Source: Isurus oxyrinchus (taxonomy: Eukaryota). Taken from it: a stretch of 64,000 bases of DNA. Under the pieces are notes generated by a model that had not been told where the DNA came from, made no database searches, and was given only the letters and a program-made list of their open reading frames with translations. The DNA is taken from NCBI GenBank assembly GCA_026770705.1, contig JANJGN010000019.1:39370001-39434000 (forward strand), given 5' to 3'. Every line of letters starts with the position of its first letter. Position 1 is the first letter of the stretch. This document shows, in pieces, positions 5,790 to 64,000 of the stretch. The translations under genes were made by a program, and so were the position numbers.

Positions 5790-8030
5790 TCGCAGAAATG
5801 TTACGGTGTAGAAGGAGGCCATTTGGCTCACCGCGTCTGCACCGGCTCTCTGAGCATTTTAACTTAGTGCCAATCTACTGCCCGTAACCCTGTACATTGT
5901 TTCTACTTAAATAATCATCCAATGCCCTTTTGAATGGCTCAATTGAACCTACCTCCACCGCACTTCCAGGCAGTGCATTCCAAGCCCTAACTATTCGCTG
6001 TGTGAAATTTTTTTTTTTCATCTCGCATTTGCTTCTTTTACAAAACACTTTAAAAACTGCGCCCTCTGGTTCTCGATCCGTTTATAAGCAGGAACAGTCT
6101 CTCCCTATCTACTCTGTCCAGACCTCTCATAATTTTGAAAACTTCTATCAAGTCTCTTCTTAGCTTTCTCCTCTCCAAGGAAAACACTCCCAACTTCTCT
6201 ATCTTTCCTCATAACTGAAGTGTCTCATTCCTGAAGCCATTCTTGTAAACTTCTTCTGCTCTCCCTCCAATGTGTTCACATCCTTCCTATAATGTGGTGC
6301 CCAGAACTGTACATAATACTCCACCGGAGGTCTAACCAGTGCCTTATATAAGCTCACCTTAACCTCCCTGCTCTTATACTCTATGCCTCTATTAATGAAG
6401 CCTAGAATACTGTATAATTTAGAAACAGCTCTTTCTACCTGTCCTGCCGCCTTTAATGACTTATGTACATATACATACAGGTCGCTCAGCTCCTGCACAA
6501 CCTTTAGAATAGTATCCATTATTTTATGCTGTCTCTCCATGTTCTTTGTACCAAAGTGTATCACCTCACACTTCTCCGCATTGAACTTCATCCACCACCT
6601 ATCCGCCCACTCCACTGCCCACTGTCAATGTCCTTCTGAAGTTCTACGCTGTCCTACTCACAGTTGATAATTCTCCCAATTTTGTGTCATCTGCTAACTT
6701 TGAAATTGTCCTCTGCACACCAAGATCTAGATTATTTATATATATCAGGAGAAGCAAGGGTCCCAGTACCAACCCCTGGGGAACTCCACTACAAACCTTC
6801 TTCCAGCCCAAAAAATACCCATTAATCATTACTCTCTGTTTCCTATCCCTCAGCCAAATATGTATCCACATTGCTCCTGTCCCTTTTATTCCACGATCTA
6901 TAACTTTCCTCAAGTCTGTTATGTGGCCTTTTGGAAGTCCATATATACCACATCAACGGCTTGCTCTCATCAACCATCTCTGTTACCTCTTCAAAAACTC
7001 CAGCAAGTTAGTTAGGCACAATTTTCCTTTAGCAAATCCATGCTGACTTTTCTGAATCATTCCACGTTTTTCCATGTGACTATTAATTCTATCCTGAATA
7101 ATTGTTTCTAGAAGTTTCCCCACCACCAAAGTTAAACAAAAACAGAATTACCTGGAAAAACTCAGCAGGTCTGGCAGCATGAGGATTCAAAACATCAACT
7201 CTTTTTTCTTCTCCGCCGATGCTGCCAGACCTGCTGAGTTTTTCCAGGTAATTCTGTTTTTGTTTTGGATTTCCAGCATCCGCAGTTTTTTGATTTTACC
7301 AAAGTTAAACTGACTGGTTTGTAATTGCAAGGCAGATCTTTACAACATCTTTTTGAACAAGGGTGTAATGTTTGCAATTCTCCAGTCCTTCGGCACCTCC
7401 CCTGAATCCAGGGAACATTGAAAAATTATTGCTAGTGCCTCTGCAATTTCCACTCTCACTTCCTTCAATATTCTTGGATGCATCTCATCGGCTCCCGGTG
7501 CCTTATCAACTTTCAGTACTGACAGCTTATCTAATATCTCCTCCTTATCAATTTTAAACCCTTCCAGCGACTGAGTTTCTTCCTCTGTCACCATGGCCTG
7601 GGCAGCATCTGCCTCCTGGGTAAAGACAGTTACGAAGTGTTCATTTAACACCTCAGCTATGCCTTTTGCCTCTACGTGTAAACTCCCTTTTTGGTCCCTA
7701 ATCGGCCCTACTCCTCCTTTTCCCACCCTATTACTATTGATATGCTAATTGGATACTTTGGAACTTCCTTTTATGTTAGCTGCCAGTGTTTTCTTAATCC
7801 CTCTTTGCTCCTCACATTTGCTCTTTCACATTCCTTCTGAACCTCCTATATTCAGCTTGGTTCTCAATTCGCTGACACCTGTCGCAGGCACACTTTTTCT
7901 TCTTTAACTTAATTTCTATCTCCTTTGTCATCCACGAAACTCTGGGTTTGTTTGTCCTACCCTTCCATTTTGAGGGAACACACCTTTACTGTGCCCAAAC
8001 CATCTCCTCTTTGAAGGTAGCTCAATGTTT
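5790..8030 (-). mobile_element. CR1 LINE fragment, interrupted by a Penelope-like insertion
   Basis: KAPGADEMHPRILKE, SGVPQGLVLGPLL, KLADDTKL, ALVRPPVEYYVQFWAP. Confidence 0.92.
7138..7297. mobile_element. Penelope-like family A, short fold-back insertion with 13-bp TSD
   Basis: ACCAAAGTTAAAC at 7125-7137 and 7298-7310; inverted arms aacagaattacctggaaaaactcagcaggtctggcagcat / atgctgccagacctgctgagtttttccaggtaattctgtt. Confidence 0.8.
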
Positions 8031-9993: not shown

Positions 9994-10160
9994 AAATAAA
10001 AACAGAAAATGCTGGAAAAGCTCAGCAGGTCTGACAGCATCTGTGGAGAGAAAAACAGAGTTAATGTTTCAAGCCTGTACCCGTCTTCAGACCTGCTCAG
10101 TTTTTCCAGCATTTTTTGTTTTTATTTCAGATGTCCAGCGCCTGCAGTATTTTGCTTTTT
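9994..10160. mobile_element. Penelope-like family A, fold-back fragment
   Basis: aaaaacagaaaatgctggaaaagctcagcaggtctg ... cagacctgctcagtttttccagcattttttgtttttattt; no clear TSD. Confidence 0.7.
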
Positions 10161-14480: not shown

Positions 14481-14776
14481 CACTCGTATCTCACGTTCTT
14501 TTGACATGTCTCCCAATGCAGTTGCTTTGGAATTTCAAAAATGAAGCTACTTGCAATATTAGTCCAAAAGCAATGAAATGGATTTATCACATTCCAGGTG
14601 TAAATGCATTTGAAGAGGGAAGAAAGTAAATTAAGATGAATCAAATATTTATGAAAATCAATATTTCCAAATATATTAGTTGTCAATTAGCCAATAAAGA
14701 TTTTAACAAAATTAATTATTCATCTTTGAGTACAAACCGATACCCAGCATATATGTTCTAAATAATGGAACTCTAC

Positions 14777-15505
14777 CTTTATAGACTTATCCATGGAAGC
14801 AGAGAGCAGTAAGTGACTATGTTGCTGCACAGGACACCATTCTATTGTAGTTACTGGTCCCTTGTGCTGAGAGATGTGGAACACCAAGCGTTTTGGTATG
14901 TCTGAAGTTTTGCATTGGTTTTCCAGGTAGGGCTTAATGAAGTCTGAAATTCTACTCAACAGACTTAACTGATGTTCTTCTGGTGGAGTATGGTTTTTCT
15001 CAGAGTTCAAAACTTCTGTGCTGTCTTTGCTTTCATAAGTTACTTCTTTCTGCCTCAGTCTTTTGGGTATGTAAGGCTTAATATTTTGAGCAGCAGCCAT
15101 TGAGTCTTGAAATAATCTCTTCTGAGCCGAGGGCACCATCTTGGCAGGAATTCTATCAGATTTCTGCATCAGGTCCAATCCATTTTTATAGTTATTTTTA
15201 GAAAACTGAAAATATGTCTCATCATTTAAAGACATCTCTGGAGGTCTGGGAGTTACACGGAGGTCTCTCTCTGCATAATTCGGTGTACTGCGCCAATTGT
15301 ATTCCTTATTGCTACTTCCAGTAGATGCAACTTTTAACTCGAAACCACATCGAGAAGATTCCAATCCTGTGATGGTTGGAAGTACAGACTGACATTGAAA
15401 TCTAGAGTGAACAAAATCATCTTTTCTCTGAAGAAAATTGACTTCTTCACTTTTGTCATTGTCTGTTTCAGAATCTGAAGACTCATAGGCAACCAGAGAA
15501 TTCAT
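14777..15505 (-). CDS. WDR25: WD repeat-containing protein 25, first coding exon (243 codons; the rest of the gene lies beyond the left window edge)
   Basis: Translates MNSLVAYESSDSETD...KPYIPKRLRQ...HKGPVTTIEWCPVQQHSHLLLSASMDKSIK, resembling the vertebrate WDR25 N-terminus and first WD repeat. Kozak-like GCCACATG; acceptor ttacag at 15514-15519; phase-0 donor AAG|GTAGAG at 14777/14776. Head-to-head with WARS1 as in human. Confidence 0.9.
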
Positions 15506-16744
15506 GTGGCAATCTGTAATGGATAGGATATGCACTCTGCTTCTGGCTGTGAACCTGATGGAGCTTCCTGTAATGACAACATTTTTATTAATTTTAAGAA
15601 TGAAAGTTGTCTTCTTAGACATTATGATGCAATTTTCTACTTTTTAAACTACTACTGTGCCTTTAATATTTTTACTCCAAAAGGTTATCTTACATCTCTA
15701 TGGATTATTTCCCTCCTTTCTAATAAAAGCACATTGTAAGTTCATTACAGACTAGGTGATATTCATGTTTGAAGCAAGCATAGTAAGAAAACCAGATATC
15801 CCTGCTGTAACAATACTCAGCTGCGCAGATGTTAATGGATCATATGGAATGGCAAGGCTATATAGAACATTTGCCAGTCCCATGTTTTATTAGCACTACA
15901 CACAAAACCAAAACTTAAAGTCTACATATTTATTGCTATGAATGAAAAGTATTAGAGACAAGAAGATTGAAAACCCATTTAAATATATTCAAGAAGGGAG
16001 AAAGAGTTAAGCCATTTAACCATAGACCTTTAATCCCAATATCATTGAGTGTGAAAGTTTCTAGAGGCCATAATACACAATCAAATTAAAACTCACCGAG
16101 AAGCAGAATAAAAATGAAGGCCAGGATGTGTAAAATGGAAGTTATGTCTGACAAATTTAATAGAAATGTTTGAGGAAATAAACTATCTTGACAAAGAAAT
16201 GCTGTGTATATACCGATTTCCAAAAGACATATGATAAAATACCACATAAGGGACTTTCAAAAAATTTTGAGACACATTTCAAAAGATTTGATATGGTAAA
16301 ATTATATTAGATGTTTATTTAAAGAGAGAGACTTGTATGTGTTTGTTTGTGAAAGAAACAAAATAAGTGGTGATTGCACCCCTGTTGCATTTTAAGTGTT
16401 CTATAAAATTTATAAACTGTATTAATCAGGGGGTGGGTTGGGATGGGGGGATGCAGAAGGAAAGAAGGAAGTAACTTCGATGCATATTAGTTAAACTGCA
16501 CAAAAAAGTTGAATTTACAAGCCAACTAATTATTTCAAGAGAGGGATATGATAGAGGATGAACTAGTTACGGGTATGGGAATGTTTGCGTTCTTTAACAC
16601 ATCCACTAACAGTAAGGTGGACTAGTGGCAGGGGAAAACTAGATTATGGTGAGTCACGGTGCAGGAAAGAGAAGGTACATGTATGAGCAAGCAGTGGGAG
16701 AGAGCAATTTGAAGAAAAGGAATCAGGGGAAGATGAAGGGTTAA

Positions 16745-18545: not shown

Positions 18546-18682
18546 CAGCATTTAGATGAGAGCTGGCAGAGCCACAACTTTTCTGACATATAAATTTTGG
18601 CTTTTTTTTATATAAAGATGCAAAAATAGCAGTTGCTCCATACAATAAATTATGCCGTTAGGCCATAATGAACAAAACTTGA

Positions 18683-18836
18683 AACAAAAGAGAAAATGTT
18701 GGAAAAACCCAGCGGGTCTGGCAGCATCTGTGGGGACAGAAACAGAGTTAACATTTCCAGTCCCCCATTTTAACTTCTTCTGAGTTTTTTCTGCACTTTG
18801 TTTTTGTTTCAGATTTCCAGCATCCACAATTTTACA
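18683..18836. mobile_element. Penelope-like family A, fold-back insertion with 12-bp TSD
   Basis: AACAAAACTTGA at 18671-18682 and 18837-18848; inverted arms. Confidence 0.75.
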
Positions 18837-18910
18837 AACAAAACTTGACCAGTCTGCCTATCAGACCTACTAGGATATACAGATGCCCCTATGCAGTAGT
18901 GCGTTAGATT

Positions 18911-21877: not shown

Positions 21878-23810
21878 CCGGGATGTGAGTGAGGGCCCCC
21901 CACCCCCGGGATGTGAGTGAGGGCCCCCCACCCCCGGGATGTGAGTGAGCGAGGGCCCCCCACCCCCGGGATGTGAGTGAGCGAGGGCCCCCCACCCCCG
22001 GGATGTGAGTGAGCGAGGGCCCCCCACCCCCGGGATGTGAGTGAGCGAGGGCCCCCCACCCCCGGGATGTGAGTGAGCGAGGGCCCCCCACCCCCGGGAT
22101 GTGAGTGAGCGAGGGCCCCCCCACCCCCGGGATGTGAGTGAGCGAGGGCCCCCCACCCCCGGGATGTGAGTGAGCGAGGGCCCCCCACCCCCGGGATGTG
22201 AGTGAGCGAGGGCCCCCCACCCCCGGGATGTGAGTGAGCGAGGGCCCCCCACCCCCGGGATGTGAGTGAGCGAGGGCCCCCCACCCCCGGGATGTGAGTG
22301 AGCGAGGGCCCCCCACCCCCGGGATGTGAGTGAGCGAGGGCCCCCCACCCCCGGGATGTGAGTGAGGGCCCCCAACCCCCGGGATGTGAGTGAGTGAGCG
22401 AGGGCCCCCCACCCCCGGGATGTGAGTTAGTGAGTGAGGACCCCCCACCCCCGGGATGTGAGTGAGTGAGCGAGGACCCCCCACCCCCGGGATGTGAGTG
22501 AGCGAGGGCCCCCCACCCCCGGGATGTGAGTGAGCGAGGGCCCCCCACCCCCGGAATGTGAGTGAGCGAGGGCCCCCCACCCCCGGGATGTGAGTGAGCG
22601 ATGGCCCCCCACCCCCGGGATGTGAGTGAGCGAGGGCCCCCCACCCCCGGGATGTGAGTGAGCGAGGGCCCCCCACCCCCGGGATGTGAGTGAGCGAGGG
22701 CCCCCCACCCCCGGGATGTGAGTGAGCGAGGGCCCCCCACCCCCGGGATGTGAGTGAGCGAGGGCCCCCCACCCCCGGGATGTGAGTGAGCGAGGGCCCC
22801 CCACCCCCGGGATGTGAGTGAGCGAGGGCCCCCCACCCCCGGGATGTGAGTGAGCGAGGGCCCCCCACCCCCGGGATGTGAGTGAGCGAGGGCCCCCCAC
22901 CCCCGGGATGTGAGTGAGCGAGGGCCCCCCACCCCCAGGGTGTGAGTGAGCGAGGACCCCCCTGCCCCCGGGATGTGAGTGAGCGAGGGCCCCCATGCCC
23001 CCGGGATGTGATGAGTGAGTGAGGACCCCCCACCCCCGGGATGTGAGTTAGTGAGTGAGGACCCCCCACCCCCGGGATGTGAGTTAGTGAGTGAGGACCC
23101 CCCACTCCCAGGGTGTGAGTGAGGGCCCCCCCTCCACATTCCCGGGATGTGAGTGAGCGAGGGCCCCACACCACTGGGATGTGAGTGAGGGCTCCCCTCC
23201 ACCACGCCCCAGGGATGTGAGTGAATGAGGGCCCCACACCCCCGGGATGTGAGTGAGTGAGGGCCCCCCCCCCCCGCCACACGACCCCGGGATGTAAGTG
23301 AGTGAGGGCCCCCCCCCCGGGATGTGAGTGAGTGAGGCCCCCCCAAAACTTCATAGCAAACCCAACTGATAAATCTGCAACCAACCCCCAACCCCAAAAA
23401 TCAGGCAAGAAACCAGTAATTTAATGAAAATTTCCATTTCTTTTCAAGAATAAAGTGACATGCTCGGTAACAATAAAGAATAAAAAGGTGGTGGTGGCAG
23501 TAGGGGGGTTGGGAAGGAGGGAAAAGAAATCCGACATATGCCAGGGGCCCCCTGTGTGAGCCCCCCCCCCCCGATGTGTGTGAGTGAGGCCCCTCCACCT
23601 CACCCACGGGATGTGAGTGCGCGACGGCCCCCCACCCCCGGGATGTGAGTGAGCAAAGGCCCCCCACCCCCGGGATGTGAGTGAGCGAGGACCCCCCACC
23701 CCTGGGATGTGAGGGAGGAGGGCCCCCCCACCCCCGGAATATGAGGGAGGGGCCCCACTCCCGGGATGTGAGTGAAGCGCCCCACCCACCCCTGGGATGT
23801 GCGGGAGGGG
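21878..23810. repeat. 32-bp GC-rich minisatellite (VNTR) in WARS1 intron 1
   Basis: Unit CACCCCCGGGATGTGAGTGAGCGAGGGCCCCC. About 33 near-perfect copies at 21878-22940, degenerate copies to ~23340 and again at ~23545-23810. The 32-aa period of the ORF translations (3 units) confirms the unit length. Confidence 0.97.
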
Positions 23811-32322: not shown

Positions 32323-33636
32323 GTATGTTCATTGCAGTATTACACCAGTGTTTTTATTGATCTTTTCTATTGGAAAAGACGATCTTAATCTAAATATGAG
32401 ATATGGCAGTAATGGTGGGTAACCTATAGAAAATCTTTTAGTATGGAATGTAGGTTAGATTAATTAAGAGTATTTTGTATGTTATAATGCCAATTTTTTG
32501 TTAGTGGTACTGAAATAATTTACACTATTGAAAGTAAAATAGTGTGGCATGGTGCATTACTTCCAGAGATTAGTCCTCTGCTGTATGCTTTGTTTTAAAC
32601 GACATTGTAACAGCGCATCTTCCCTTCTTAGCCCCAACTTAGCATACAGTGAAATGTTGCCATAATGTCTAGCCTTGATTCCTAAAGACAGTTTAATTTG
32701 TTTAAAAAAAATCTCACACACAACACCATAAAGGAAAAACAAATAGTGCACTCTATACTTATGGTCTCCGCTAGGGAACAAATACATTTCCAAACTATCA
32801 GCCATTGATTACTTGATAACATGTTGAAATGTTAAAGACACTGCTGAGTGATGAGCATGACACGCCTGCAGCAGAGGAGGAAACCACTATGAAGGGGAAA
32901 ATACCCATAAAGAAGACCCTTTTGCCAAATTGTAAGTAATGAGTGGAAAGATCTGAGAAGACATTTACCATAAGGGGATAATTGGAGTGAATCGGGCAAG
33001 TTTTTGCTTTCCCTGCTGAATTATTAATAACTGCAGTGCTCCCAGCAATGCATGTGAAGAAAAAAAAACCCAGTTCGGGCTGAATTTGATCCTAACCCAA
33101 CAAGGTAAGTATCACATTCTCATGAAGCATGAAAGTGATTAAACTTGCTATGCTGTTAAAATTGCAATGAATTGAAATCCACACCAAAGTATCAGTCAAC
33201 TATACTGCAATGTATTACATTATATATGGCCTCTGCTCCTGTGAACTCCTAGTACCCCAAACTTATCTGGCTGATGGAACAGACTGGACACCTGATCCCA
33301 AGCCTCTGCACCTCCAGCACTGTATAATAGCTGGCTTCTTGAAAATATGTGAAGTCAGCCGAAGGTAACTGGGCTCAGTCTTCCTTTACTGTACCTTTTC
33401 ACAGTGAGATCAAAAATGGATTGATTCCATGGCATGTGTGTAGGAACTCCATTGCACTGCGCAAGAGAATGTACTTCTAAGATACACACCTAAGCACTAC
33501 CCTACTCAACATAGATTATGGCATCAAAATTACAGTTGTGCTAACTTTAGAACCAAGATTCTTCTTTAACTGTAAATCAAGTGCTTTTTCACCTCAGATC
33601 TGCAAATATAATATTTTAATTCTGTTCTGGCTGCAG

Positions 33637-33737
33637 ACAGAGCCCAGGATTCTATCAGAATGTGGTTAAAATCCAGAAACATGTTACTTTTAATCAAGTG
33701 AAGGGGATCTTTGGCTTTGGAGATAGTGACTGTATAG
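33637..33737 (+). CDS. WARS1: WARS1 exon 7
   Basis: ctgcag|[33 protein letters not shown]|gtaaga; 101 nt. Confidence 0.96.
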
Positions 33738-34380
33738 GTAAGATTAATAGTGCTTATTTTCAAAATTTAATCGAAAGTTTGACCTTGTGCACTGAAGCCA
33801 ACATTTTTGTGTCACCTTCAGTATGTTCATTTATGTTTCCGCTGCTGCCATGGGGTCCCATCAACATCTTGTTTTATTGTGATTTCATCAAACTTTATCA
33901 AATGTTTTCTGTGAGCAGACTTGTGTTCCTTTTGATAACCATTAAACTGGAAACTACGGCATAGCCCCATGAACAGATTTGTGACCTCAAAGTTAAAAGC
34001 TTCATTTCGACTGTACCAGCTTCTAATCACCAATCCTACCATGAGAATGTTTTGTTAAATTTCTGCAAGAGCCTTATCTTTCATAATTAAGCAACTAGCA
34101 TTCCATTAATTAGCTATGATTAAGCAAATTTAAACTGAGAACAAATATTGTATTGTGCCTGGGGAAAGTTTAATATTTGAGTGACAATGTTAATATATAA
34201 ACATGTGAGTTTAATAAACATATAAATATATATAACTTGTGTTCTTTGAGGTAAATTAGTGTAACGTATCACTTTAGATCTTTTATGGTAAATATCTAAC
34301 TTTGTTAATCACTTTGTGTTTGATTGCTCTTGTTAAGAAATGGATTTTAAAAATTCTAACTCAGTATTTTTAATTGACAG

Positions 34381-34493: not shown

Positions 34494-34699
34494 GTCAGAG
34501 CTAAGTGCTAGCCAAAGAAAATACATATTCTTGAAATGTGCCAGACCTTTGAATTATAAGTATTAATTGCATTCAAGTTTACACTATGTGGTACATGTTT
34601 TTTCTCCCCCCATGAGTCATTTTCATTATACACCACCAGTAGCCTAAGAGCCCAGAGGACAGACAGATCTGTGACAATATCAGAACAAAAGTGACAATT

Positions 34700-34940
34700 A
34701 AGCTGCCCTATTCGAAGAAGAGTGTCATCATTTTCTCAGTGTCATAGTTTACATTTATCCCTCACCCACTAACGCCAAAGAAGAAAATCTGGCCATTTAT
34801 CTCTTTTAAGTTTGTGTGATCTTGCTGTGCAAGATTGACTCCACATTTTCCTACATTGACTGCATTGCAAAAGTACATCAATGTGAAATACTTTGGAATA
34901 TCCTGAGGCCTTGAAAGGTGCTATATAAATGTAAGTTATT
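34700..34940 (+). mobile_element. Deu-domain SINE relic (SacSINE1/AmnSINE1-like)
   Basis: ctattcgaagaagag...atttatccctca...gatcttgctgtgc...tcctgaggccttgaaaggtgctatataaatgtaagt. This resembles the Deu core and tail as recalled from memory. Tail fragments of the same type lie near 9300 and 29635 on the - strand. Confidence 0.55.
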
Positions 34941-35065
34941 TCTTTAAAATGTTTAGAAGAGCAGCCTGGAAACAGCTTTCTGTTTTGGATAGTGTTTTGT
35001 GTTGAGGAACTTGCCAAGTGTTTGATACATCATACAACAATATGACAGAATTCAACAGTTCATAG

Positions 35066-36050
35066 ATAAGCAAAATACTGCGGATGCTGGAAATTTGAAA
35101 CAAAAATAAAAATTGCTGGAGAAATTCAGCAGGTCTGACAGCATCTGTGGAGAGAAAGACGAGTTAATGTTTCAAGTCCAGATGACTCCTCTTCAGAACG
35201 AACAAGAAATGTGGTGAAATGTATACTGTATAAGGGGGGTGGGACAGATGAAGCTGGATAGCAGGCCAGTGATAGGTGGAGGCAAAGGAGAGATTGCAAA
35301 AGTTATAAACAAAAGGTCGAAGGGGTGTTGATGGTGGTGATACTGGCTAAAGGAGGTGCTAATGATGACATTAAGAGTAGGAAGCAGGATGAGCCAGTGA
35401 CAGATGGCCCTAGTGGGGGTGAGGTGGGGGGAGGGGACGGTGTGGGAGAAAAGATCGAAATAGGCTATAAGGTGGGGATAAAACAATGAATGGAAATAAA
35501 TTTTAGAAATAATAATAGAAATAGGTAGAGAAAAAATGTATATATAAAAAATTTTAAAATAAATATTTGAAAAAATCCCCCTTTTTTCAAATATTGATTT
35601 TAAATTTTCATACATTTTTTCCCTACCTATTTCTATTATTATTTTTTAAATTTATTTCCATTCATTGTTTTATCCCCATCTTTTAGCCTATTTTGATCCT
35701 TGCTCCCACACCGTCCCCCACCCCACCCCCACTAGAGCCATCTGTCACTGGCTCATCCTGCTTCCTACTCTTAATGTCATCATTAGCACCTCCTTTAGCC
35801 AGTATCACCACCATCAACACTCCTTCGACCTTTTGTTTATAACTTCTGCAATCTCTCCTTTGCCTCCACCTATCACTGGCCTTCTATCCAGTTTCACCTG
35901 TCCCACCCCCCTTAAACAGTAAATTTTCACCACATTTCTACTTCTTGTTAGTTCTGAAGAAGAGTCATCTGGACTTGAAACGTTAACTCTGTCTTTCTCT
36001 CCACAGATGCTGTCAGACCTGCTGAGTCTTTCCAGCAACTTTTGTTTTTG
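35066..36050. mobile_element. Penelope-like family A, ~985-bp fold-back element with perfect 14-bp TSD (WARS1 intron 8)
   Basis: TCAACAGTTCATAG at 35052-35065 and 36051-36064; two highly similar ~470-bp inverted arms meeting near 35575. Confidence 0.88.
35950..35988 (+). ncRNA. Minimal type-I hammerhead ribozyme motif (family A)
   Basis: AGTT CTGAAGA A GAGTC atctg GACTT GAA ACGT T AACT: intact CUGANGA/GAAA core, 5-bp stem II, palindromic stem III, stem I AGTT/AACT. Confidence 0.7.
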
Positions 36051-36397
36051 TCAACAGTTCATAGCCCAGGCATCACCATAGAGTCTCTCATATTGCTACT
36101 TGGTGCTGCAAAGAGTTGCTGTACACAGCTAGATCTTAATATAATTTTGTTGTAGCAGATTTGAATTTCTTATAAATTATAATTATTTGCAGTTTATATT
36201 ATTATTTTTAATTTATATTAAAGTATATTTAGCATACTTTGACAAAAGTGCTTGCTTCTGCAAGCCAATGTTCTTGTAAGTCGGCTTTGTGAAACATAAA
36301 ATTTTAGGAAACTTGCATTTTCAGCATAGAAGGAAGTCATTCATCCCCTTGTATTCCATGCTGACCAAAAAAGAGCGTAATCCCACCTTCCAGCTCT

Positions 36398-36471
36398 GAG
36401 TTTTTCCAGGTATTTTTATTTTATTTTTATTTTTGTTTTGGATTTCCAGCATCCGCAGGTTTTTGCTTTTA
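36398..36471 (+). mobile_element. Penelope-like family A, truncated 3' end with 10-bp TSD
   Basis: TTCCAGCTCT at 36388-36397 and 36472-36481 flanking gagtttttccagg...gatttccagcatccgcagg. Confidence 0.7.
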
Positions 36472-38045
36472 TTCCAGCTCTTGGTCCTGCTCATTACAGC
36501 ACCTCAAGTTCATATTCAAGTCTTTTTTAAATGCAGTGAAGGTTTCTGCCTCTACCACCTTTCAGGCAGTGAGTTCCAGACTCCAGCTACAATCTGGATG
36601 GGAAATATTTCTCCTCATTTCCACTCTAATCCTTCTGCCAATTATTTTAATTTTATGCCCCCTGGTTGTTGACCTCTCCGCTAATGGAAAAGATCCTTCC
36701 TACCACTCTATCTAAGCACCTCTCAGAATTTTATGCACCTCAATTAAGTATCCCCTCAGTCTCCACTGTCTACAGGAAAACAACCCTAGTCTATCCAATC
36801 CTCATTGCTAAAATTCTCCGTTCTTGGCAACATCCTCATAAACCTATATGCTCTCCAGCTTGATACAAACCCCCTGTAATGTGCTGACCAGAACTGTATG
36901 TAGTACTCTAGCTATGATCAAACTAGCATTTTATATAGTTCTGGTACAACCTCCCTGTCCTTAGATTCTAATCCTCAGTCAATAAAGAAAAGTATCCTGT
37001 ATGCCTTCTTGAACATTTTATCTACCTGCCCTGCTACAATAGGGATCTGTGGACATGCACTCCATGCCCTCTGTTCTTTTACACTTTTCAGTATCCTGCC
37101 ATTTATCGTGCATTCCCTTGCCTTGTTTGAGCTGTCCAAACATTTCAAACTTCACACTTCTCCAGAATGAATTCCATTTACCATTTGTCTGCCTCCCTGA
37201 TCAGCCCATGAGGGTCCTTGTACTGAGCCCTGCAGAACATAATCGTAAACCCCAACCCTTTGCTTCCTGCCACTGAGCCATTTTTGGATCCAATTTGCTT
37301 TTTTCACTTGGATCCCATAAGCATTTAGTCTTCTGAGCAGACTGCCATGTGTAACCTTGTCAAAAGCCTTGCTAAAATCTATGTTGACTACATCAAATGT
37401 GCTACCCTTATTGACAGTCTCTATTTCCACCTCAAAAATTCAATCATGTTAGTCAGACATGAACTTTCCTTAACAAATTCATGCTTAATTGTCCTTGATT
37501 TAATCCATGCTTTTCTATATGGCAACTTATATTGTGTCTCAGAATTTTTTTCCAATAATTTGCTCACCACCAAGGTTCAGCTGACCAGTCTGTAATTACT
37601 TAAGGCTATACCTTAGTTCCTTTTTAGCGGTCATCCAGCATCATGCCTGTAGCCAGACAGCATTGGAAAATAGTGGTCAGAGCATCTATTTTTTATTTCC
37701 TTGCTTCCCATAGCAATCTGGGGTATATTTCATCCCTACCTAATGATTTATCCACTTTCAAGGATGCTAAGCACCTTAATATTTCCTCCCTCACTGTTTA
37801 TCCTTGCTAATATTTCATATTACTCCTTAAATATAATGTTTGCTTCATTCTCTCTTTTGTGAAAACAGACTCCAAGTATTCATGAAGAACCATGCTCACC
37901 TGTCCTAACTCCATACACACATTACATTTTTGGTCTCAAATTGGTCCTTACCTTTCCTTAGTTATCCTCTTGTTGTTTATGTATTTCTCTTTGGTTTTTT
38001 TAATTTTACTTCCCAATATTTTTTGCTCTCTTTGCTTTCTTAATT

Positions 38046-38515
38046 GCAGTCACTTGGTGGTACAAAATTTCAATCACGGAGTCATATCTAACAGTAGAAC
38101 AGTAAAACTCAGAATGTCTATTGGGTAGCACTTGCTGAACAATCCTGGACATGCGAATAGCTACCCAGTAACCAATTTAAGATATTCAGTCAAACTTGTA
38201 ATATGGTTCAACTTCCACTTGCTAGAAGCGACATATGTTCATGCACAGGGACTCGTTCTCTGTAAGCAAAAGGAATATGTTCAAGCCTTGCAATTTTTTT
38301 TAATTACTAGAGAGCTAGTAATTGGGGAGCTTATGGCTCACTGTTGCTTTCTCCATGGCAACACCTTAGCCAATTGGAGTCAACTTGCCAACCAATCAGC
38401 ACCCTTTTCTCCTGTAGCATAAATTGTATAATCATTTGAAATTTGGCATTCTTGCATTTGTCCTCATGAGTGCAAGATGAAAAGCTTCAGCAACATGTCA
38501 CACCTTTCAGCTATA
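38046..38515 (+). mobile_element. Penelope-like family B 3' fragment (GIY-YIG C-terminal relic plus hammerhead)
   Basis: HLLNNPGHA...HLLEATYVHAQGLVLCKQKE; hammerhead-like ttgtc ctcatga gtgcaagat gaaa agcttc at 38458-38488; imperfect TSD tttctt(a/g)att. Confidence 0.75.
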
Positions 38516-40798
38516 TTTCTTGATTTCCTTTTTCATTTCACTCCTGCACTTTCTGAACTCTCTAGGCTTTCTGCAGTATTGAGTTTTAGGCATCTGACGT
38601 CTTTATTGCCTTATCCTACTCGGTATGCTCTTTGACATTTGGTGGGGGCGGTGGAGTGGGACCTAGGTTTGGGAATGCAATGCTTTATCTTTGTGAACCC
38701 TCTTTAGCTTTTCCTTGAATGCCTCTCACTACTCTGACACTGATTTGCCTTCAAGTAGCTGTTTCCCATCCACTTCTGCCAAATCACATCTCAACTTAAT
38801 AAAATTACCCTTCCCCAACTTACAGCTTTTACCCTTGGTCTATATTTGCCCTTTTTCATAATAACACTAAACCTAACTGAAGTATGATCACTACCAATAA
38901 AATGTTTTCCCACAGATGCCCTTTCCAGCTGCTCAGTTTCCTTTCCTAAAATGAAGTCCAGAAGTGACCTTTCTCTTGGGCTTGTCCTGTAATGGCTTAT
39001 AAAGTTCTCCTAAATGCATTTTAAGAATTCTGTGCCATCTGCATCTTATACACTGATTTTTATCCCAGTTAATATTAGGGAGATGAAATCCCCTATTACT
39101 ACTGACATTTTGTTTCTGTACTGTTCAGCAATTCGCCTACCTATTTGCTCTACTATTTCCTTCTGACTGAGAATTTATAGTATACTCCCAGCATTGTGAT
39201 TACCTCTTTCTTGTCTCTCAAATCAACCAATATAACCTCATTTGATGCTCCTTCTAGCAATACATCCCTCCTCGTAGCTATGATTGTTTCTCTAACTAAT
39301 ATAATCAACCTCCCCCCTATATTTTTTGTTCCCCTCTCTATTCCATCTGAAAACCTTGTAACCAGGAATGTTGAGCTGCCATCCCTGCCCTTCTTTAAGC
39401 CACGTTTCAGAAATGGCCGTGATGCCATACTTCCAAGTACCCATCTGTGCTCTCAGTTCATCTGCCTTATTCATTATGCAATGAAGTACATACCAGTGAT
39501 TCCTAAACAACTTCTTTGTTATTTATTTTCTAGCCTTTGCTTCCTCAACTTTCCATTCTCACTTTTTAATTTTCTGCCTTCTATTTCCAACTTTGCTTCT
39601 CTTCCTTCTGAATCTACACTCTGGTTTCTATTCTCCTGCCAAGTGAGTTTAAATTATCACCAACAGCGCCAACAAACCTCCTCACTGAGATATTGTTCCT
39701 AGCTTTGTTCAGGTCCAACCGCTTTCCAGTCTCTCTGCCACAGAAACCTAAATCCCTCCGACGATTACAGCCTTTGAGATCCTTCTTTTTGATTTCTTTC
39801 CTAGCTCCCTGAAATCTACCTGCAAGTCGTCATCCTTCTTCCCACCTGTGTCATTGGTACCAATATGGACCAAGACCCCCCACCCCCTTGCACAATGTTT
39901 TGCAGCTGCTCAATGACATCCTTGACCCTGGCTTCAGAGAGGCAACATCTTGGAGTCATGTCTGTCATCACAGAAACATCTGTCCATTCAGCTTGACTAT
40001 TTAATCTCTCTACCACTATTGCTTTCCTGACTTCCTTCCTCCTCCACTGTACAGCTGAGCCATCCATAATTCTGTGGCCTTGCGTCTGGCTGTACACCCG
40101 AAAGGGCAGGGGAGGGGGGTGCAGACAGGGAGTGGGTGCCTGCAATACCTGCCTGGTCCTTCACTGTCTGGCGCTCCCTCTGCCTGCACACCCTTACACT
40201 GCAATGTGACCACCTCCGGAAGCACGCTACCCATGTATCTCTCACTAATGCACCGGATTGCATTTCACAGGATTGCGGTGCTCTTCCATATCTCCATTTA
40301 TTAGATTAAACTTGACAGAAATAAACTAAAGACTTATTTACCAAAAAAAAAACACTGACCAGGTACTCACTCAGCATCTTCCCATGTGCTGCTGCCATTT
40401 CAGGTTTGTTTTTTGCCTCAATCCTGATATTTGTGCTTCTGCCCCTGAACTCCTTCAGTTCTGTGCTCTCTTCTGCTCCAGTCTCTTCCATCCTATGGTA
40501 TCACTCCTTGATTTTCATTTTTGTTCTCGCTCTGCCACTGCTTTCATCCCTGCCTCTTACCTCTGGTCCCACTCCCGCTGTTGCACTCAAGTCTTGAGGT
40601 GCTGCTTCTTTTATCCTCATGCCTCACCTCTAGTCTCACTGTTGACACTGCTTCTCTTGTCTTTCTAAGTTTTTTTTTACAATAACTATGTGCATGTAAT
40701 TGCTTAAATTTGACTGCAATTAATATTCACATGCCCCAAGATTAGTTTTGAGAGCAAAACTTCAATTCTGTTTAAACACTTGTGTTACTTTTTCATAG

Positions 40799-41356: not shown

Positions 41357-42896
41357 GTCAGTGTAATGTATTTCATTTTAAAATTTTCTTTTTAAAATGT
41401 TTATTGCGCTACCCCTCCTCCACAGCCGCCAGCACACTAACCTACTCTGACCTGGTCAAAATTAAAACACAGAATCTCACAGGTAATAATTTCTGGATTG
41501 TTACCTGTGCCACTTGAAAGTTGGCAAAGGGACAAACCGATTAGGATGGTAAGTTCATTGCTGAAAGAATGGTGTGGGAGGCAGGGTTTTCAATTCATGG
41601 AGCACTGGCACCAGTAATGGCAAAAAAAAGCTGTTCCATTGGGATGGGCTCCACTTAAACCATAATGAGGCCTGTGTCCTGGTGAATCGTGTAACGAGGG
41701 CAGTAAATAGGGCTTTAAACTAATGAATTGGTTGTGGGGATCGGATTCAGGGAAGGTTAAATTCAAAAGCAATCGTATGAATGTTGAGGCTGGAGAACAG
41801 GATAGCAATTTGGATCAAATTAAACAGAAAAGGTCAGGAAGAGACTTAGAGTTTAAAAGGTTATAGGCCATTAGTCACTAAAGTGATATCAGGGAAAAAT
41901 ATAAATAAATTAATAGAAATACATAGGTTTCATCTCACAGAGATTATGAAAATGTGGTTAGAGTGACCAGGGTTGGGAGTTAAAAGTTCCAGGATTCTTG
42001 ACTTTTGGAATTGACAGGGAAAATAGAAATGGGAGGGCAGTGATAGTCCTGATAATAAAAATTGGAATAAAGACAGTAGCGAGAAAAAGATCTTGGCTCA
42101 GAGAATAAAGATGTAGAATTCGTTTGGGTACAGCTAAGAAACAAGGGGCAGAAAACAGTGGTAGGAGTAATTAATAGGCCCCCTAACAGTAATTGCCATG
42201 CCACGTAGAGTGTAAATGATGAGATCAGAGGTGCATGTAGTAAGTGTTATACAACTATCAGAGGGCACTTTAATCTTCAAGTAGACTGGACAAACCAAAT
42301 TTGCAGCAGTAGTATGGAGGATGAGTTCATTGACTGGATTGAAAGTTTTCTAAATCACTATGTTACGGAACCAATTAGGAAACAGGCTGGTTTGGATGTA
42401 GTATTATGCAGTAAGGTAGGGTTAATTAATAATCTTGTAGTAAAGGAACCTCTTGGGAAGTGTGATCATATGGTAGAATTTTATGTTGAGTTTACAGTGT
42501 GATTTTGTTGAATCCATAACTAGGATCCTATGTATGAATGAAGCAAATTAAGGAGGTATGAGGGGCGAATAGGCCAAGGTAGGTTGGAAAATTAGATTTA
42601 AAAGGCATGACAGTAGATAAACAATGAAAATATCAAAAGAAATAATTCATAATATATATTCCCTTGAGGAATAAAAACCTCATGGTATAAGTGACCCTAT
42701 GGTGGCTATCAAGAAGTTGGGCTAATGGATGCAGTTTAAAATGTTGCCAAAAATAGTAGTAAGTTTGAGGATCAGGCCGATTTTAGAATTCAACAAAGAA
42801 TGCTCAGAAAATTGATGGAAAATACAATATGAGAGTGAACAAGAAAGAGAGAAGAACAAATTGTGAAAGCTTCTATAGACACATAAAAAGGGAAAG

Positions 42897-44047
42897 TAGT
42901 CATTTGGCAGTACAGAACTTGAGTATTGCTGAAAAAAGAAGTTTTTTTGTCAAACCTTTTCATCTTGCACTCATCAGGAAATTTGCAAGAAAATGCCAAT
43001 GTCAAGGGCGACAGCAATTTATACTGTATGAGAAGAGAGTGCTGATTAGTTGGCAAGTTAGACTCTGTCGGAGGCAGTGCCATGGAGAATGCACCAGCTG
43101 ATGGAGACTGACAGTTAACTGCCAAGCATTGCTGAAATTTAAACCAGGCAACTTGACGCTGGTCAAGACATTGCCGTGGGAAATGAACCAGGAAATGGCT
43201 GTCACTTATTTTGTTTAGTTGCAATGTATGTACATGTTCTTTCTGTTTGCAAAGAACAGGGCCCTGTACATTAATCTATGTAGCTTCCAGTACACACACA
43301 CACCACACTGTGAACCTGACTGATGATCTTAAATTGGTTGTCAGCGTAATTCTTAACACACAGAGGATTATTTAGCAAAAATTGTCCAATCGTGGAATCA
43401 CATCTAATGTTGGACACTGTTTCGAGTTTTGCAAGCATAGGCTGGTTGGATACGGTCTGTACCTTGAATGTTGCGAATATCAACTATCAATATACAGACT
43501 ATACCCAACCAGCCCATGCTTGCAAAACTCAAAACACAGTGTCCCAACATTAGATGTGATTCTGCAATTGGACATTTGCTAAATAATCCTCAGTGTGTTA
43601 AGAATTATACTGACAACCAATTTTAGATCGTCAGTTGGACTTGCAGTGTAGCAGATTTGTATGTACTGGAAGCTACATATGTTAATACACCGGGCCCTGT
43701 TCTTTGTAGACAGAAAGGACATGTACACACATTGCACCTGTTTCAGCTAAACAAAATAAGTAACAGCCATTCTCTGGTTCATTTCCCAGAGCAATGTCTT
43801 GACCAATCAGAGTCAAGTGGCCTTGTTTAAATTTTAAGCCACGCTTGGCAGTTAACTGTCAGTCATCAACAACTGGTGCATTCTCCATGGCAGCGCCTCT
43901 ACCAGAGTCCACTTGCCAATCCATCAGTACTCTCTTCTCATACGTTGTAAATTGTTGTTTCACCTGACATTGGTATTTTCTTGGGAATTGTCATGATGAG
44001 TGTAAGACAAAAAGCTTCAATGATAAATGTCTCTGTTTTTGTCAACA
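42897..44047. mobile_element. Penelope-like family B, ~1.15-kb fold-back element with 14-bp TSD
   Basis: ATAAAAAGG(G/A)AAAG at 42883-42896 and 44048-44061; inverted arms with a GIY-YIG relic (STIGQFLLNNPLCVKNYADNQFKII) and a hammerhead near each outer end. Confidence 0.8.
42947..42982 (-). ncRNA. Hammerhead ribozyme motif (family B), core intact
   Basis: Minus strand: tttc CTGATGA gtgcaagat GAAA aggttt gacaa; sister copies at 38458-38493 and 43988-44020 (+). Confidence 0.6.
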
Positions 44048-44119
44048 ATAAAAAGGAAAAGATTAACAACAGTAATCAATAAACAAATTAGAGGCAGAGA
44101 CAGAAGAAAGTATCATGGG

Positions 44120-59335: not shown

Positions 59336-60972
59336 AGTACCCTTTGTTTCCTGTCACTGAGCCAATTTTGGATCCAACCCACCACATTCCTCTGTATCCC
59401 ATGGGCTTTTATTTTTCTGACCAGTCTGCTATGCAGAACCTTGTCAAATGCCTTACCAAAATCCATATAGACCACATCAAATGCACTATCTTTATCAATC
59501 CTCCTTGTTTCTTGCTCAAAAAAAATTCAATTTAAGTTAGTAAGGCATGACTTTCCCTAAACAAAACCATGCTTGCCTTTCTAAGTGACAGTTTATCCTG
59601 ACTCTGAGAATTGATTCTAATAATTTGCCCACCACTGAAGTCAGACTGACTAATCTATAATTATCTGGCCTATCCTTTGCACCCTTTCTAAACAATGGTA
59701 CAATGTTCCCAGACCTCCAGTCCTCTGATACCTTGTCTGTATCTAGTGAGGATTGGAAAATGATCCTCGGGGCATCTGCTATTTCCTCCCTGGCTTCCTT
59801 TAACAGCCTGGATGCAATCCATCCGGCCCTGGTGAATTATCCATCTTCAAGGATGTCAGTCCCTCCACTACTTCCTCTCTCATCATGCTTATTGTATCTA
59901 ATATTTCACACTCCTCCTTAACTAAAATGTCTGCACCATCCCTCTCCCTTGTGAAGACAGAGACAAAGTATTCATTAAGAACCCCGCCCACATCTTCTGC
60001 ATCAACGCCTAAGTTACCTTGTGCATCCCTAATCAGCCCTACTCCTTCCTTCTTTAGCCTCTAGCTCTTAATGTACCAATAAAACATCTTTTGAGTTTCC
60101 TTGATTTTTGCCTGCCATTGTTCTTTCATATCCTCTTTGCTTTTCTGATATCATTTTTTACTTCACCCCTGTATTTTCTATAAGCTGCCTTTTTCTGCTT
60201 TATCTTACCCTGTATGCTTCTAGATAACCAAGGAGCTCTAGATTTGGTGGTACCACTCTTTTCCTTTGCGGGGACATGCCTACACTATGCCCAAAGAATC
60301 TCACTTTTGAATGCCTCCCACTAGTCTCTCACTGATTTCCCTTCAAGTAGCTTCAACCAGTCCACTTTTGCCAGAACACTTCTCAGCTTCATATAATGTG
60401 TCTTTCCCCCAATTTAGAACTTTTGCTTCTGTTCTACCTTTATCCTTTTCCATAATTATGCTGCATTTAACCATATTATGGTCACTATCTCCAAAATGGT
60501 CACCTCCTGCTATTTCATCCACTTGCCCAGGTTCATCTTCTAAAACTAAATCTAGAATTGCACTTCCTCTCGTTGGACTTGTTACGTGCTGACTAAAGAA
60601 GTTCTCTTGAATGTAGTTTAAGAATTTTGTGCCATCTGTGCCCTTCACATTTTTCGTATCCCAATTGATATTAGTGTAGTTGAAGTCCTCAACTATTACT
60701 ACCCTATTGTTTCTGCACTCAGAAATTTGCCTACATATTTGCTCATCTACCACCCTCTCACTATTTGGGGGTCTATAGTACACTCCTAGAAGTGTGGCTG
60801 CCCCTTTTTTATTTCTGAGCTCCACCCATATGGCCTCATTCGATGATTCATTTAGTATATTTTCACTCCTCGATTTTCACTCCTCGCAGCTGTTCTTTAA
60901 CCAATAATGTTATACCCCCACCTTTTTTTAATCTCTTTGTCTATCCTGTCTGAACACTCTGTATCCAGGGAT

Positions 60973-61197
60973 TACCTGGAAAAGCTCAGCAGGTCGGGCA
61001 GCATCAGCGGAGAAGAAAAGAGTTGACGTTTCGAGTCCTCATGACCCTTCAACAGAACTAGTTCTGTTGAAGGGTCATGAGGACTCGAAACGTCAATTCT
61101 TTTCTTCTCCACCGATGCTGCCAGACCTGCTGAGTTTTTCCAGGTAATTCTGTTTTTGTTTTGGATTTCTAGCATCCGCAGTTTTTTTTGTTTTTAT
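60973..61197. mobile_element. Penelope-like family A, near-perfect spacer-less palindrome with 16-bp TSD
   Basis: CTCTGTATCCAGGGAT at 60957-60972 and 61198-61213; arms 60971-61059 and 61060-61148 centred on AACTAGTT. Confidence 0.88.
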
Positions 61198-64000
61198 CTC
61201 TGTATCCAGGGATGTTGAGCTGTCAATTGTGCTCCTTATTAAGCCAAGTTTCAGTTATAGTGATGATATCGTGCTGCCATGTGTCTACCTGTACCTTTAG
61301 CTCATCAGCTTTGTTTGCTATACTCCTTGAACTTAAATATGTACCCTTTAACACTGCCAAATTCCTGTGCTGTACACATTTTAACCTTTGCTTCTTTTGT
61401 CTTGCAGAGTCACTCGCTAATTTTCTGTCTCCCACTCCCCGCTCTGAATTTGTCCTATCTAAATCTGCCCTTAGGTTCCCATTCCCCTGCCAATCTAGTT
61501 TAAACCCTCCCCACAACACAAACAAGTCTCCCTGCAAGGATACTAGTCCCGGTCCGGTTCAGGTTTTGACCTTCCAGCTTGTACAGGTCACACCTTTCCC
61601 AGAATTGATCCCAGTGCCCCTGAAATCCTAAGCCCTCCCTCCTGCACCATCTCTGCAGCCACACATTCATCTAGTGAATTCTCCTGTTTCTATACCCACT
61701 AACACATGGTCTTGGGAGTAATCTGGAAATTGCCACCTTTGAGATCCTGCTAGATCTTTCCTAATTCCCTAATCTCAGCCTGCAGGGTCTCATCTCTTTT
61801 TCTACCTATATCATTGGTACTAATGTGGACCATGATCTCTGTCTGTGCACCCTCGTCCTCCAAAATACTCTAGCAGTTCGATGATATCCATGACCCTGGC
61901 ACGAGGGAGGCAATATACCATCTTGGAATCAAATTTGCGACCACAGAAGCACCTGTCTTTCCTCTAACTAATGAATCTCTTATCACGACTACTGTCCCCA
62001 CCCCTTCTTCCTCCACTCCTGTACAGCTGAGCCACCTGTAGTGCCACGAACTTGGATCTGACTACACTCCTCTGAGTGCCCTCTCCAGCATCCAAAATGG
62101 AAAACTGATTAGCGAGCGGGACCTTGGGAGGACTCGTGCAGTAGCTGCCTGGTTCTCTTGGACTGCCTGGCAGTCAGCATTCTCTTTCTGTCACTATGCT
62201 CCTAGCCTGCAGTGTGACCACCTCTCTGAACATGCTATCCATGTAGCTCTCAGCCTCGCGAATATGCCACAGTGACTCCAGCCACCACTCGATCTCCAGA
62301 ACCCAGAGCTTAATTTCTGTAGTTGGTGACATTTCCTGCACACATGGCCGTTTAGGTCACTCGTAGCGCCTATGACTTCTTACATACACCTGGACATGCA
62401 TTACGCATGATCAAGCTGCCCTGCCATATCTTACCTTTATTTCACTTATGTTAATTTTATTTTACTTTGGTCTGCTTATATTAATTTTACTTGGCCTTAA
62501 CTCAATAAACCCTACAATATTGATAAACCTTATAATAACTGATAAATCTGACTAATAATTAACACACTTTGCAAGTTGCAATAAACGTTACTTAAAGCAT
62601 GGCTGGGGGCAAGAGTTAGCATGAGTAGGACCTTTTGAAGTTATCTTTCAAAAGGTTTCCTCATCCAGACATGGTCCACAATACCTCTGAGGAGCCGTGA
62701 ACCATGAGTTCTTGAAAAGCTGGCCCGACTTCATGAAAATTGCAAGGGACCAGAAGATGCCTATCTCCACAATGGAGCCGGCCAGGTCAGGAGTCCAGGG
62801 TGCAGGCTCGCTGCCCACACCCTTCTCCTGTGCTAACAAAAACTGGGGGAGGGAATCCCGAAATTGGATCCCATCTGCCATTTTTTACGGTATGCAAAGT
62901 CTGCCCAACTTAAATCTAGCCCATCATCTTGATTAGAGAAAGCCAAGGTTGATTATTTGCAACTACAAAACCAGAAATAGCATAAATTACACAATTTGAA
63001 TCGTAATTTGTTCTTTGCTTCCAATATTATCATTTATAAAAGTAAATACTTCAGTTGTAATGCCATGGGTTTGAAATTTGTATCCAAAATATAGTTACAC
63101 CAGTGAAATGGGATATACAAAAATCACTGTTCTACTTAATTTCCATAATTTCTCTGGGGGCTTCCCTGTAATCTTTGATTAAACTTGACTAGTTAAGTGA
63201 CTTATAAGCTACTTGACAAGCACAAAATGAGGTTTGCTGTAGCTGAGCCCTGATCACCCAGGCCTCTGCTTGCAAAGCTGACAAATTCCTGCAGTGAAAC
63301 AATTCAGACTGAATTAACACTTCTATTTGTTGCTTTAAAGTAAAATAAAACTAGATGAAGACTATTGCTTCTAAAAGTGGAGTGTTTTAAAATACGTTTA
63401 AAATTGCCAAACTATTGAACTAGGGATTCAAAATTATAATCAGGACAGTGAACAAACTATTTAGATTTCAACTTTATGCAGAGACTTGCATAAAATTGTT
63501 GCCCCATAACTTCAGTAACTCCCGCCTCGCACCCTCCCTCACCCCACCCTGCCCCTAACAGAGAGATAGAGTATAGTCCTGATGTACCTCACCACACAGA
63601 GTAGATCAGGATACAACTATCTCTTTTGCTTAACCAACCACCACCCAGTGCTGACACTGTCCAGTACTCTCAGCAACATGAGTCACAACAATCCAAAGAG
63701 ATCGAGTCCTAAAGCAAATTACACTCTAAGACAACACACAACAGTACAGTCTGACTATCAGCTAGCAGGCAACCCAAAGTAGACAAAAGCATTGCACCAG
63801 CAATGGACTAAATGGATCTTAGAGTAGAAATGTGAGGGTGCCACTGAAATTTTCAGACCACCATTCAGGTCATGTACTTTCATGTCAATTCACTGGTAGT
63901 GTGCCAAGATAGAAACTGCTTTTATTTTATTTATCAACAACTTTTCATTTTGGAGATAAGTCATCTTCCAAGTAGAGGGGTGAATCACAGTAAAGGGCAG

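Follow-up and report, generated by a model that had tools for sequence, protein, structure and literature searches.

Penelope-like elements (PLEs) are present in all vertebrate lineages (PMC4350176), and strong 5′ truncation characterises their insertions, in which an inverted and likewise 5′-truncated copy often lies beside the 5′ end and one end often carries a tail of 30-40 bp; the origin of the inverted copy and the tail is still described as unresolved (PMC8557442). These features are also given as curation guidance (PMC8969392). PLE examples have target site duplications (TSDs) of 8-10 bp, including Pen2a_Av with a 9-bp TSD and a 31-bp tail, and self-priming at palindromic junctions has been proposed for these elements (PMC3846280). 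For the Poseidon element PAc of the anole Anolis carolinensis, both target strands are cut and extended, the tail maps between two reverse transcriptase (RT) start sites, and insertion in vitro does not need hammerhead cleavage (PMC11167929). The minimal-hammerhead features of PLEs have been described, and opposite-strand pairs of these motifs 100-700 bp apart were already noted (PMC4209133). Animal retrozymes, in turn, are head-to-tail tandem repeats (PMC7229834; bioRxiv 10.64898/2026.07.22.740005). They have been reported from one chondrichthyan genome with a mean consensus of 363 bp, in a preprint whose supplementary tables may list the family studied here (bioRxiv 10.64898/2026.07.22.740005). 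In literature outside Repbase, Dfam, and subscription journals, the term "hammerhead ribozyme" was absent from the 20 papers on cartilaginous fish listed out of 2,058.

We analysed a fold-back at 35052-36064 of a 64-kb stretch of DNA (the window). It joins two copies of the non-coding 3′ terminus of an abundant, hammerhead-bearing repeat head to head; a single target-primed insertion by a PLE RT-endonuclease likely placed it, and it is now likely inert. The parts of this explanation that we observe directly are the anatomy, the TSD, the asymmetry of the tail, the abundance of the family, the variable junctions, and the two preferred ends. The fold-back is thus likely an ordinary dead insertion scar of a Penelope-type element, not a new self-propagating ribozyme element.

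The locus resembles the complex insertions of endonuclease-bearing (EN+) PLEs in its head-to-head inverted copy, the 34-nt tail at one end, the single TSD around the whole unit, the palindromic junction, and the strong 5′ truncation; its parent may be of the Neptune, Poseidon, or another clade. It differs in that its truncation fell before any coding sequence. The same features recur in the family: inverted copies at 5 of 12 loci in the window, a one-sided tail, two preferred 3′ ends, and short TSDs whose length varies (six of the 12 loci have one, with 9, 10, 12, 13, 14, and 16 bp). A hammerhead motif lies in the terminal repeat, with descriptor matches in both focal arms. An inverted 5′-truncated copy, a one-sided tail, a TSD, and a hammerhead are the typical published form of a PLE insertion, which supports the Penelope-like origin suggested by a first-pass annotation of this DNA.

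Structure of the insertion

The fold-back is bounded by a 14-bp TSD, TCAACAGTTCATAG, that is exact on both sides (35052-35065 and 36051-36064), whereas exact matches of at least 14 nt arise by chance in 2 of 2886 random pairs of 60x60-nt windows. The left arm (35100-35575, minus strand) is a 5′-truncated sense copy of the family's 3′ end, which is non-coding and 3′UTR/pLTR-like, and the right arm (35582-36050, plus strand, with the aligned stretch reaching 36051; delimited by alignment and BLAST) is the inverted, 5′-truncated copy without a tail. Between them lies a 6-nt loop (35576-35581), the centre at which the two 5′-truncated ends meet head to head. The right arm halts at the equivalent of 35100, and the left arm runs 34 nt further outward; this tail (35066-35099, minus strand) is the extreme 3′ end of the element and is found in the left arm only. 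The first-pass annotation had described two inverted arms of about 470 bp within a perfect 14-bp duplication. The duplication is indeed perfect and the arms are inverted, but they are unequal in length. Of 463 aligned columns, 435 are identical and 28 are mismatched, 19 of the latter by transitions; there are also 6 gap events, and the divergence is 6.0%.

As the earlier annotation had also stated, the arms lack visible coding sequence: open frames of either arm had no Pfam match, and tblastn with five PLE-like proteins gave no match in the focal arms. No tandem array is present at the locus. The whole element is predicted to fold into a hairpin that is 90% paired.

We infer the enzyme, the order of steps, and the present inactivity as follows. 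A GIY-YIG endonuclease would have introduced a nick in each target strand, the two offset by about 14 nt. From the outer 3′ start site of the element, reverse transcription would have proceeded for about 510 nt before stopping. An inverted second copy would have been produced in the same reaction; for the near-symmetric focal copy, the simplest route would be new DNA folding back at the 6-nt loop. Termination of this second copy at the inner site, 34 nt short, would explain why one arm alone has the tail; the two arms would since have decayed independently to 6% divergence. The hammerheads would be passengers of the pLTR that act as dimers in the tandem transcript of the parent.

Head-to-head pairs in the window

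A BLAST search with the left arm identified 12 family loci in the window, the focal one included, in agreement with the earlier estimate of about a dozen copies; tens of thousands of public contigs also match. Five of these loci are head-to-head pairs, located at 7.1k, 10.0k, 18.7k, 35k (the focal copy), and 61.0k, and each of the five has the tail in a single arm. For the tailed and tail-less arms, respectively, the 5′ ends fall at reference positions 407/435 at 7.1k, 441/382 at 10.0k, 447/400 at 18.7k, 1/4 at 35k, and 380/380 at 61.0k. The other four pairs fold back 380-450 nt from the focal centre, every one at its own junction, so the focal junction is common to no other pair in the window, and the focal centre is reached by none of the 11 other loci.

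Exact flanking duplications accompany four of the five pairs (13, 12, 14, and 16 bp). Two single-arm copies, at 16.7k and 36.4k, have TSDs of their own (9 and 10 bp), of which the 9-bp duplication is a weak case because matches of at least 9 nt occur in 61 of 2886 random pairs. The remaining six of the 12 loci have no exact duplication of at least 9 nt.

Three of the pairs are short fold-backs of unequal 5′ reach (7125-7310, 9994-10157, and 18671-18848). The arms at 7.1k are identical over their shared part (43/43 nt), and short shared letters are visible at the 7.1k and 10.0k junctions. The fourth short fold-back (60957-61213) has a 16-bp TSD, and its two arms meet in perfect symmetry at an ACTAGT palindrome immediately ahead of the hammerhead. 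Its core reads CTGTTGA instead of CTGAnGA in either arm, with a GTC site, which suggests a subfamily with a variant core.

The second copy may also arise by another route. In twin priming, each nicked strand would prime a cDNA of its own, using the two RT start sites, and the cDNA ends would be joined by microhomology; this would replace the fold-back step only, and we regard it as a real possibility, if the lesser one. At 10.0k and 18.7k, it is the tail-less arm that extends further 5′, by 47-59 nt relative to the tailed one. A simple fold-back is therefore insufficient for two of the five pairs, and either this step is not general or deletions later removed central sequence. The letters shared at the 7.1k and 10.0k junctions also speak for twin priming, as does the purified anole PLE protein, which has two start sites and acts on both strands, cutting and extending them (PMC11167929). 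Yet the arms differ by no more than 6 nt in the focal copy and by 0 nt in the 61.0k pair, so that two independent truncations are unlikely unless they met the same stop. Unequal pairs could also result if hairpin centres later suffered asymmetric deletions, and the sample comprises five pairs only. A tally of junction symmetry over such pairs genome-wide could separate fold-back from twin priming without bench work.

The family in public contigs and its source RNA

We compared the left flank plus left arm with the contigs of 4 of 24 runs (organisms A and B) at 80% likeness. In the three DNA runs, of which about half of each was read, 25,229, 24,719, and 23,021 contigs matched; these counts, like the summed depth of the family, are not copy numbers. 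The summed contig depth peaks over the 3′-most 110 nt and remains far above that of the flank all the way to the centre, so the arm is family sequence throughout. The family has two preferred 3′ ends about 30 nt apart: among the best 24 of 1,682 rows, host-junction loose ends at 35068 occur in 555, 823, and 553 contigs of the three DNA runs, and those at 35110 in 162, 227, and 147. In the latter group, the loose letters carry family sequence about 12 nt on, to about 35098. In a further run, presumed to be RNA, 1,780 contigs match the arm, which indicates neither strand nor level.

The contigs also bear on whether the two arms entered together. We kept 22 arm sites at which most of the depth of run X1 differs from the left arm (from the best 40 of 158 rows, after dropping 3 sites in the flank, 1 in the tail, and 14 at or below half). 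At these sites, the right arm has the left-arm letter 11 times, the family letter 9 times, and another letter twice. A letter at 35381 is common to both arms and is missing from 99% of the family depth. The shared letter and the mixed variant sites fit a single template followed by independent decay of the arms. The earlier claim of a single insertion event is supported.

We found no RT or endonuclease ORF tied to the focal family in the arms, by protein search, or in metagenome and viral contigs. Exact family motifs had no match in the metagenome contigs or the viral contigs. When the open frame of 43 residues that spans the right hammerhead was used as a protein query, no longer protein appeared among 46 candidates, which is weak evidence.

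As far as the letters go, the 510 nt without codons are compatible with a template of either kind, the terminal part of an autonomous element or an RNA that is non-autonomous. The latter alternative retains the insertion chemistry and the fold-back as a by-product and overlaps with the main explanation; only the source RNA would differ, being a stand-alone, hammerhead-bearing, PLE-dependent SINE of at least 510 nt that is mobilised in trans. We consider this unlikely, though well short of negligible. The arm has 510 nt with no detectable coding sequence, the family is very abundant, and non-autonomous PLE derivatives that share 3′ ends have been described (PMC8557442; bioRxiv 10.64898/2026.07.22.740005). 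A second fold-back family in the window, moreover, has arms of similar length that do reach endonuclease codons. Against a separate element, the family sequence continues to the last compared base (20, 29, and 22 contigs extend beyond one end of the compared stretch), so 35578 is not established as a 5′ boundary, and a 3′UTR/pLTR of 500 nt would require no element of its own.

This second fold-back lies at 42924-44050 (widest limits 42883-44061), is about 1.1-1.15 kb long, and has arms that are 16% apart. The C-termini of GIY-YIG-type proteins, whose own GIY-YIG Pfam matches are weak and below the curated cut-off, align to either arm (tblastn E as low as 4e-15). The arms contain a CTGATGA-type hammerhead-like core, the left one is about 27 nt longer, and a candidate duplication of 13 of 14 letters flanks the unit. 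Judged by these letters, another family in the window, with arms that extend into endonuclease-like codons, yields the same architecture. A single-arm copy of this family is found at about 38050-38490.

The two alternatives could also hold jointly: the arm would then belong to a dispersed, non-tandem, hammerhead-bearing SINE-like family of very high copy number that a PLE mobilises in trans, and the pairs would be cDNAs primed independently at two RT start sites. We judge this combination improbable. If it is true, the genome is a large natural dataset on how PLE inverted repeats and tails form.

Opposed hammerhead motifs

Returning to the reading of the focal copy as a truncated PLE insertion, its hammerheads can be compared with those of PLE terminal repeats. 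A descriptor of the minimal motif (CTGAnGA, optional bulge, stem II, GAAA, UH, and stem I of at least 3 bp) matched three times in the window (+35954, -35196, and -10090), compared with a mean of 0.01 in 100 resampled windows; the matches are in both focal arms and one other family copy. The outward-reading motif that the first-pass annotation had noticed in each arm is thus recovered. The minimal type I motif of the right arm (35950-35988, plus strand) has a stem I of 4 bp, one unpaired base, a stem II of 5 bp, a palindromic ACGT helix III, and a GUU site. Its core had been called intact, and the core letters are present; stem II, however, is closed by G·U, whereas the family has G-C. The motif of the left arm (35162-35200, minus strand) retains the core CTGAAGA...GAAA and is decayed, as claimed, with a broken helix III palindrome and a stem I of 3 bp. 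The predicted self-duplex of helix III has -5.5 kcal/mol in the right arm and +1.3 kcal/mol in the left, so that a palindromic helix III permitting dimers is predicted for the right arm only.

These motifs resemble the minimal type I hammerheads of metazoan PLE pLTRs (PMC4209133) in their core letters, the unpaired base before stem II, the short stem I, the palindromic helix III region, and, in the family majority, the G10.1-C11.1 pair. The focal copy differs from them in that this pair is missing, stem II being closed by G·U in both arms, and in the lost palindrome of the left motif. G-C closes stem II in the loose-end consensus of the family (167, 191, and 205 contigs of the three DNA runs). 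The focal stem II has 5 bp, compared with 7-8 bp in Schistosoma families (PMC4209133). As in PAc (PMC11167929), two preferred 3′ ends define a tail downstream of the hammerhead. In PAc the ORF begins in stem II, whereas the protein search yielded no relative for the open frame that spans the focal motif.

The search with Rfam models that the first-pass annotation had proposed gave no support: no family matched anywhere in the window at the gathering threshold, and none of the 17 matches by E-value in 35000-36100 was to a hammerhead family. Matches to MIR8562 (65.8 bits versus a gathering threshold of 211) were dismissed, as they reflect the AT-rich hairpin. Free folding of monomers did not favour the hammerhead over shuffles (z +0.96 to +1.61). 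Among the 12 window copies, 85.5% of 76 stem cells are paired, compared with 18-49% for slid partners, and covariation in stems I and II is not above column shuffles (48 and 44 of 500). The family appears to be one of the lineage's large reservoirs of hammerhead motifs that are invisible to Rfam. The single focal locus matters little; the family matters somewhat more.

The first-pass annotation had taken the 1-kb fold-back itself for a non-autonomous, retrozyme-like unit, which would be freed by its two hammerheads and amplified as such. One TSD does enclose both arms, a motif lies near either end, and the unit shares with animal non-LTR retrozymes its lack of coding sequence, the type I hammerhead motif, and kinship with PLE pLTRs. 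Retrozymes are tandem, with same-strand motifs and circular RNAs, unlike the focal copy, which is an inverted pair with motifs on opposite strands. Any single RNA therefore carries one sense hammerhead, and excision by two ribozymes in the manner of a retrozyme is impossible for the fold-back. For the plus-strand RNA, folding predicts that the left arm pairs with 37 of the 39 nt of the right motif, so the single sense hammerhead of each transcript is predicted to be locked inside the long hairpin, and a host pre-mRNA would pair the two antisense motifs with each other. The locus has no tandem array, junctions differ among the five pairs, and the centre recurs at no other locus in the window. 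A centre joint was also absent among the best 15 of 53 joints in the public contigs, although this is weak evidence because the compared stretch ended at the centre. Amplification of the fold-back as a unit is thus very improbable, and this part of the earlier annotation is not supported.

Directly downstream of the hammerhead, at 35990-36005 (plus strand) and at its counterpart in the left arm, a pyrimidine tract ends in CAG and is followed by ATG. This part of the family sequence resembles a candidate splice acceptor. PLE pLTRs can hold introns.

Other repeats and the host gene

That the hairpin is a DNA transposon of the MITE-like kind, or arose after insertion by an inverted duplication that had nothing to do with retrotransposition, is barely credible: long inverted arms within a TSD and a third fold-back of unrelated sequence at 1185-1484 would suit this origin, but the termini are not mutual inverted repeats given the 34-nt tail, the copies at 16.7k and 36.4k have a single arm and a TSD each, every copy is anchored near the 3′ end, and the variable TSDs (9 to 16 bp) and variable junctions largely refute it.

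The third fold-back is 300 nt long (87%) and consists of an unrelated interspersed repeat that is related to 41459-41647; no TSD was found around it. This repeat resembles a fragment of a CR1/L2-type LINE. Broken LINE-like coding remnants are present at 19.3k-20.8k, 44.5k-45.8k, and 48.3k-50.3k, and these are presumably of Tx1/L1, RTE, and L2/CR1 types.

The focal insertion lies in an intron of a tryptophanyl-tRNA synthetase (TrpRS; WARS1-like) gene on the plus strand (34500-40798, limits approximate). The gene is recognised by a match of PDB TrpRS to 33620-33961 (E 1.7e-15) and by the presence of a WHEP domain, and the flanking exons, placed by short peptide motifs, are near 34.4k and 40.8k. 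A contig of organism B aligns to 34946-35091 with 3 differences and continues 26 letters into the element. As this is below the 31-letter bridging rule, the contig is at most suggestive of a shared insertion. No empty-site contig was found among the matches listed. The focal locus is an old intronic insertion that is probably common to two related organisms. Long intronic hairpins of this kind may be candidate double-stranded RNA substrates in host pre-mRNA.

A WD40-protein exon (14720-15643, minus strand) is encoded on the strand opposite to the TrpRS exons (28.8k-41.4k, plus strand), an arrangement that resembles the WDR25-WARS1 head-to-head pair. Between the two genes, at 21885-23801, is a GC-rich 32-bp minisatellite with 42.8 copies in its main array.
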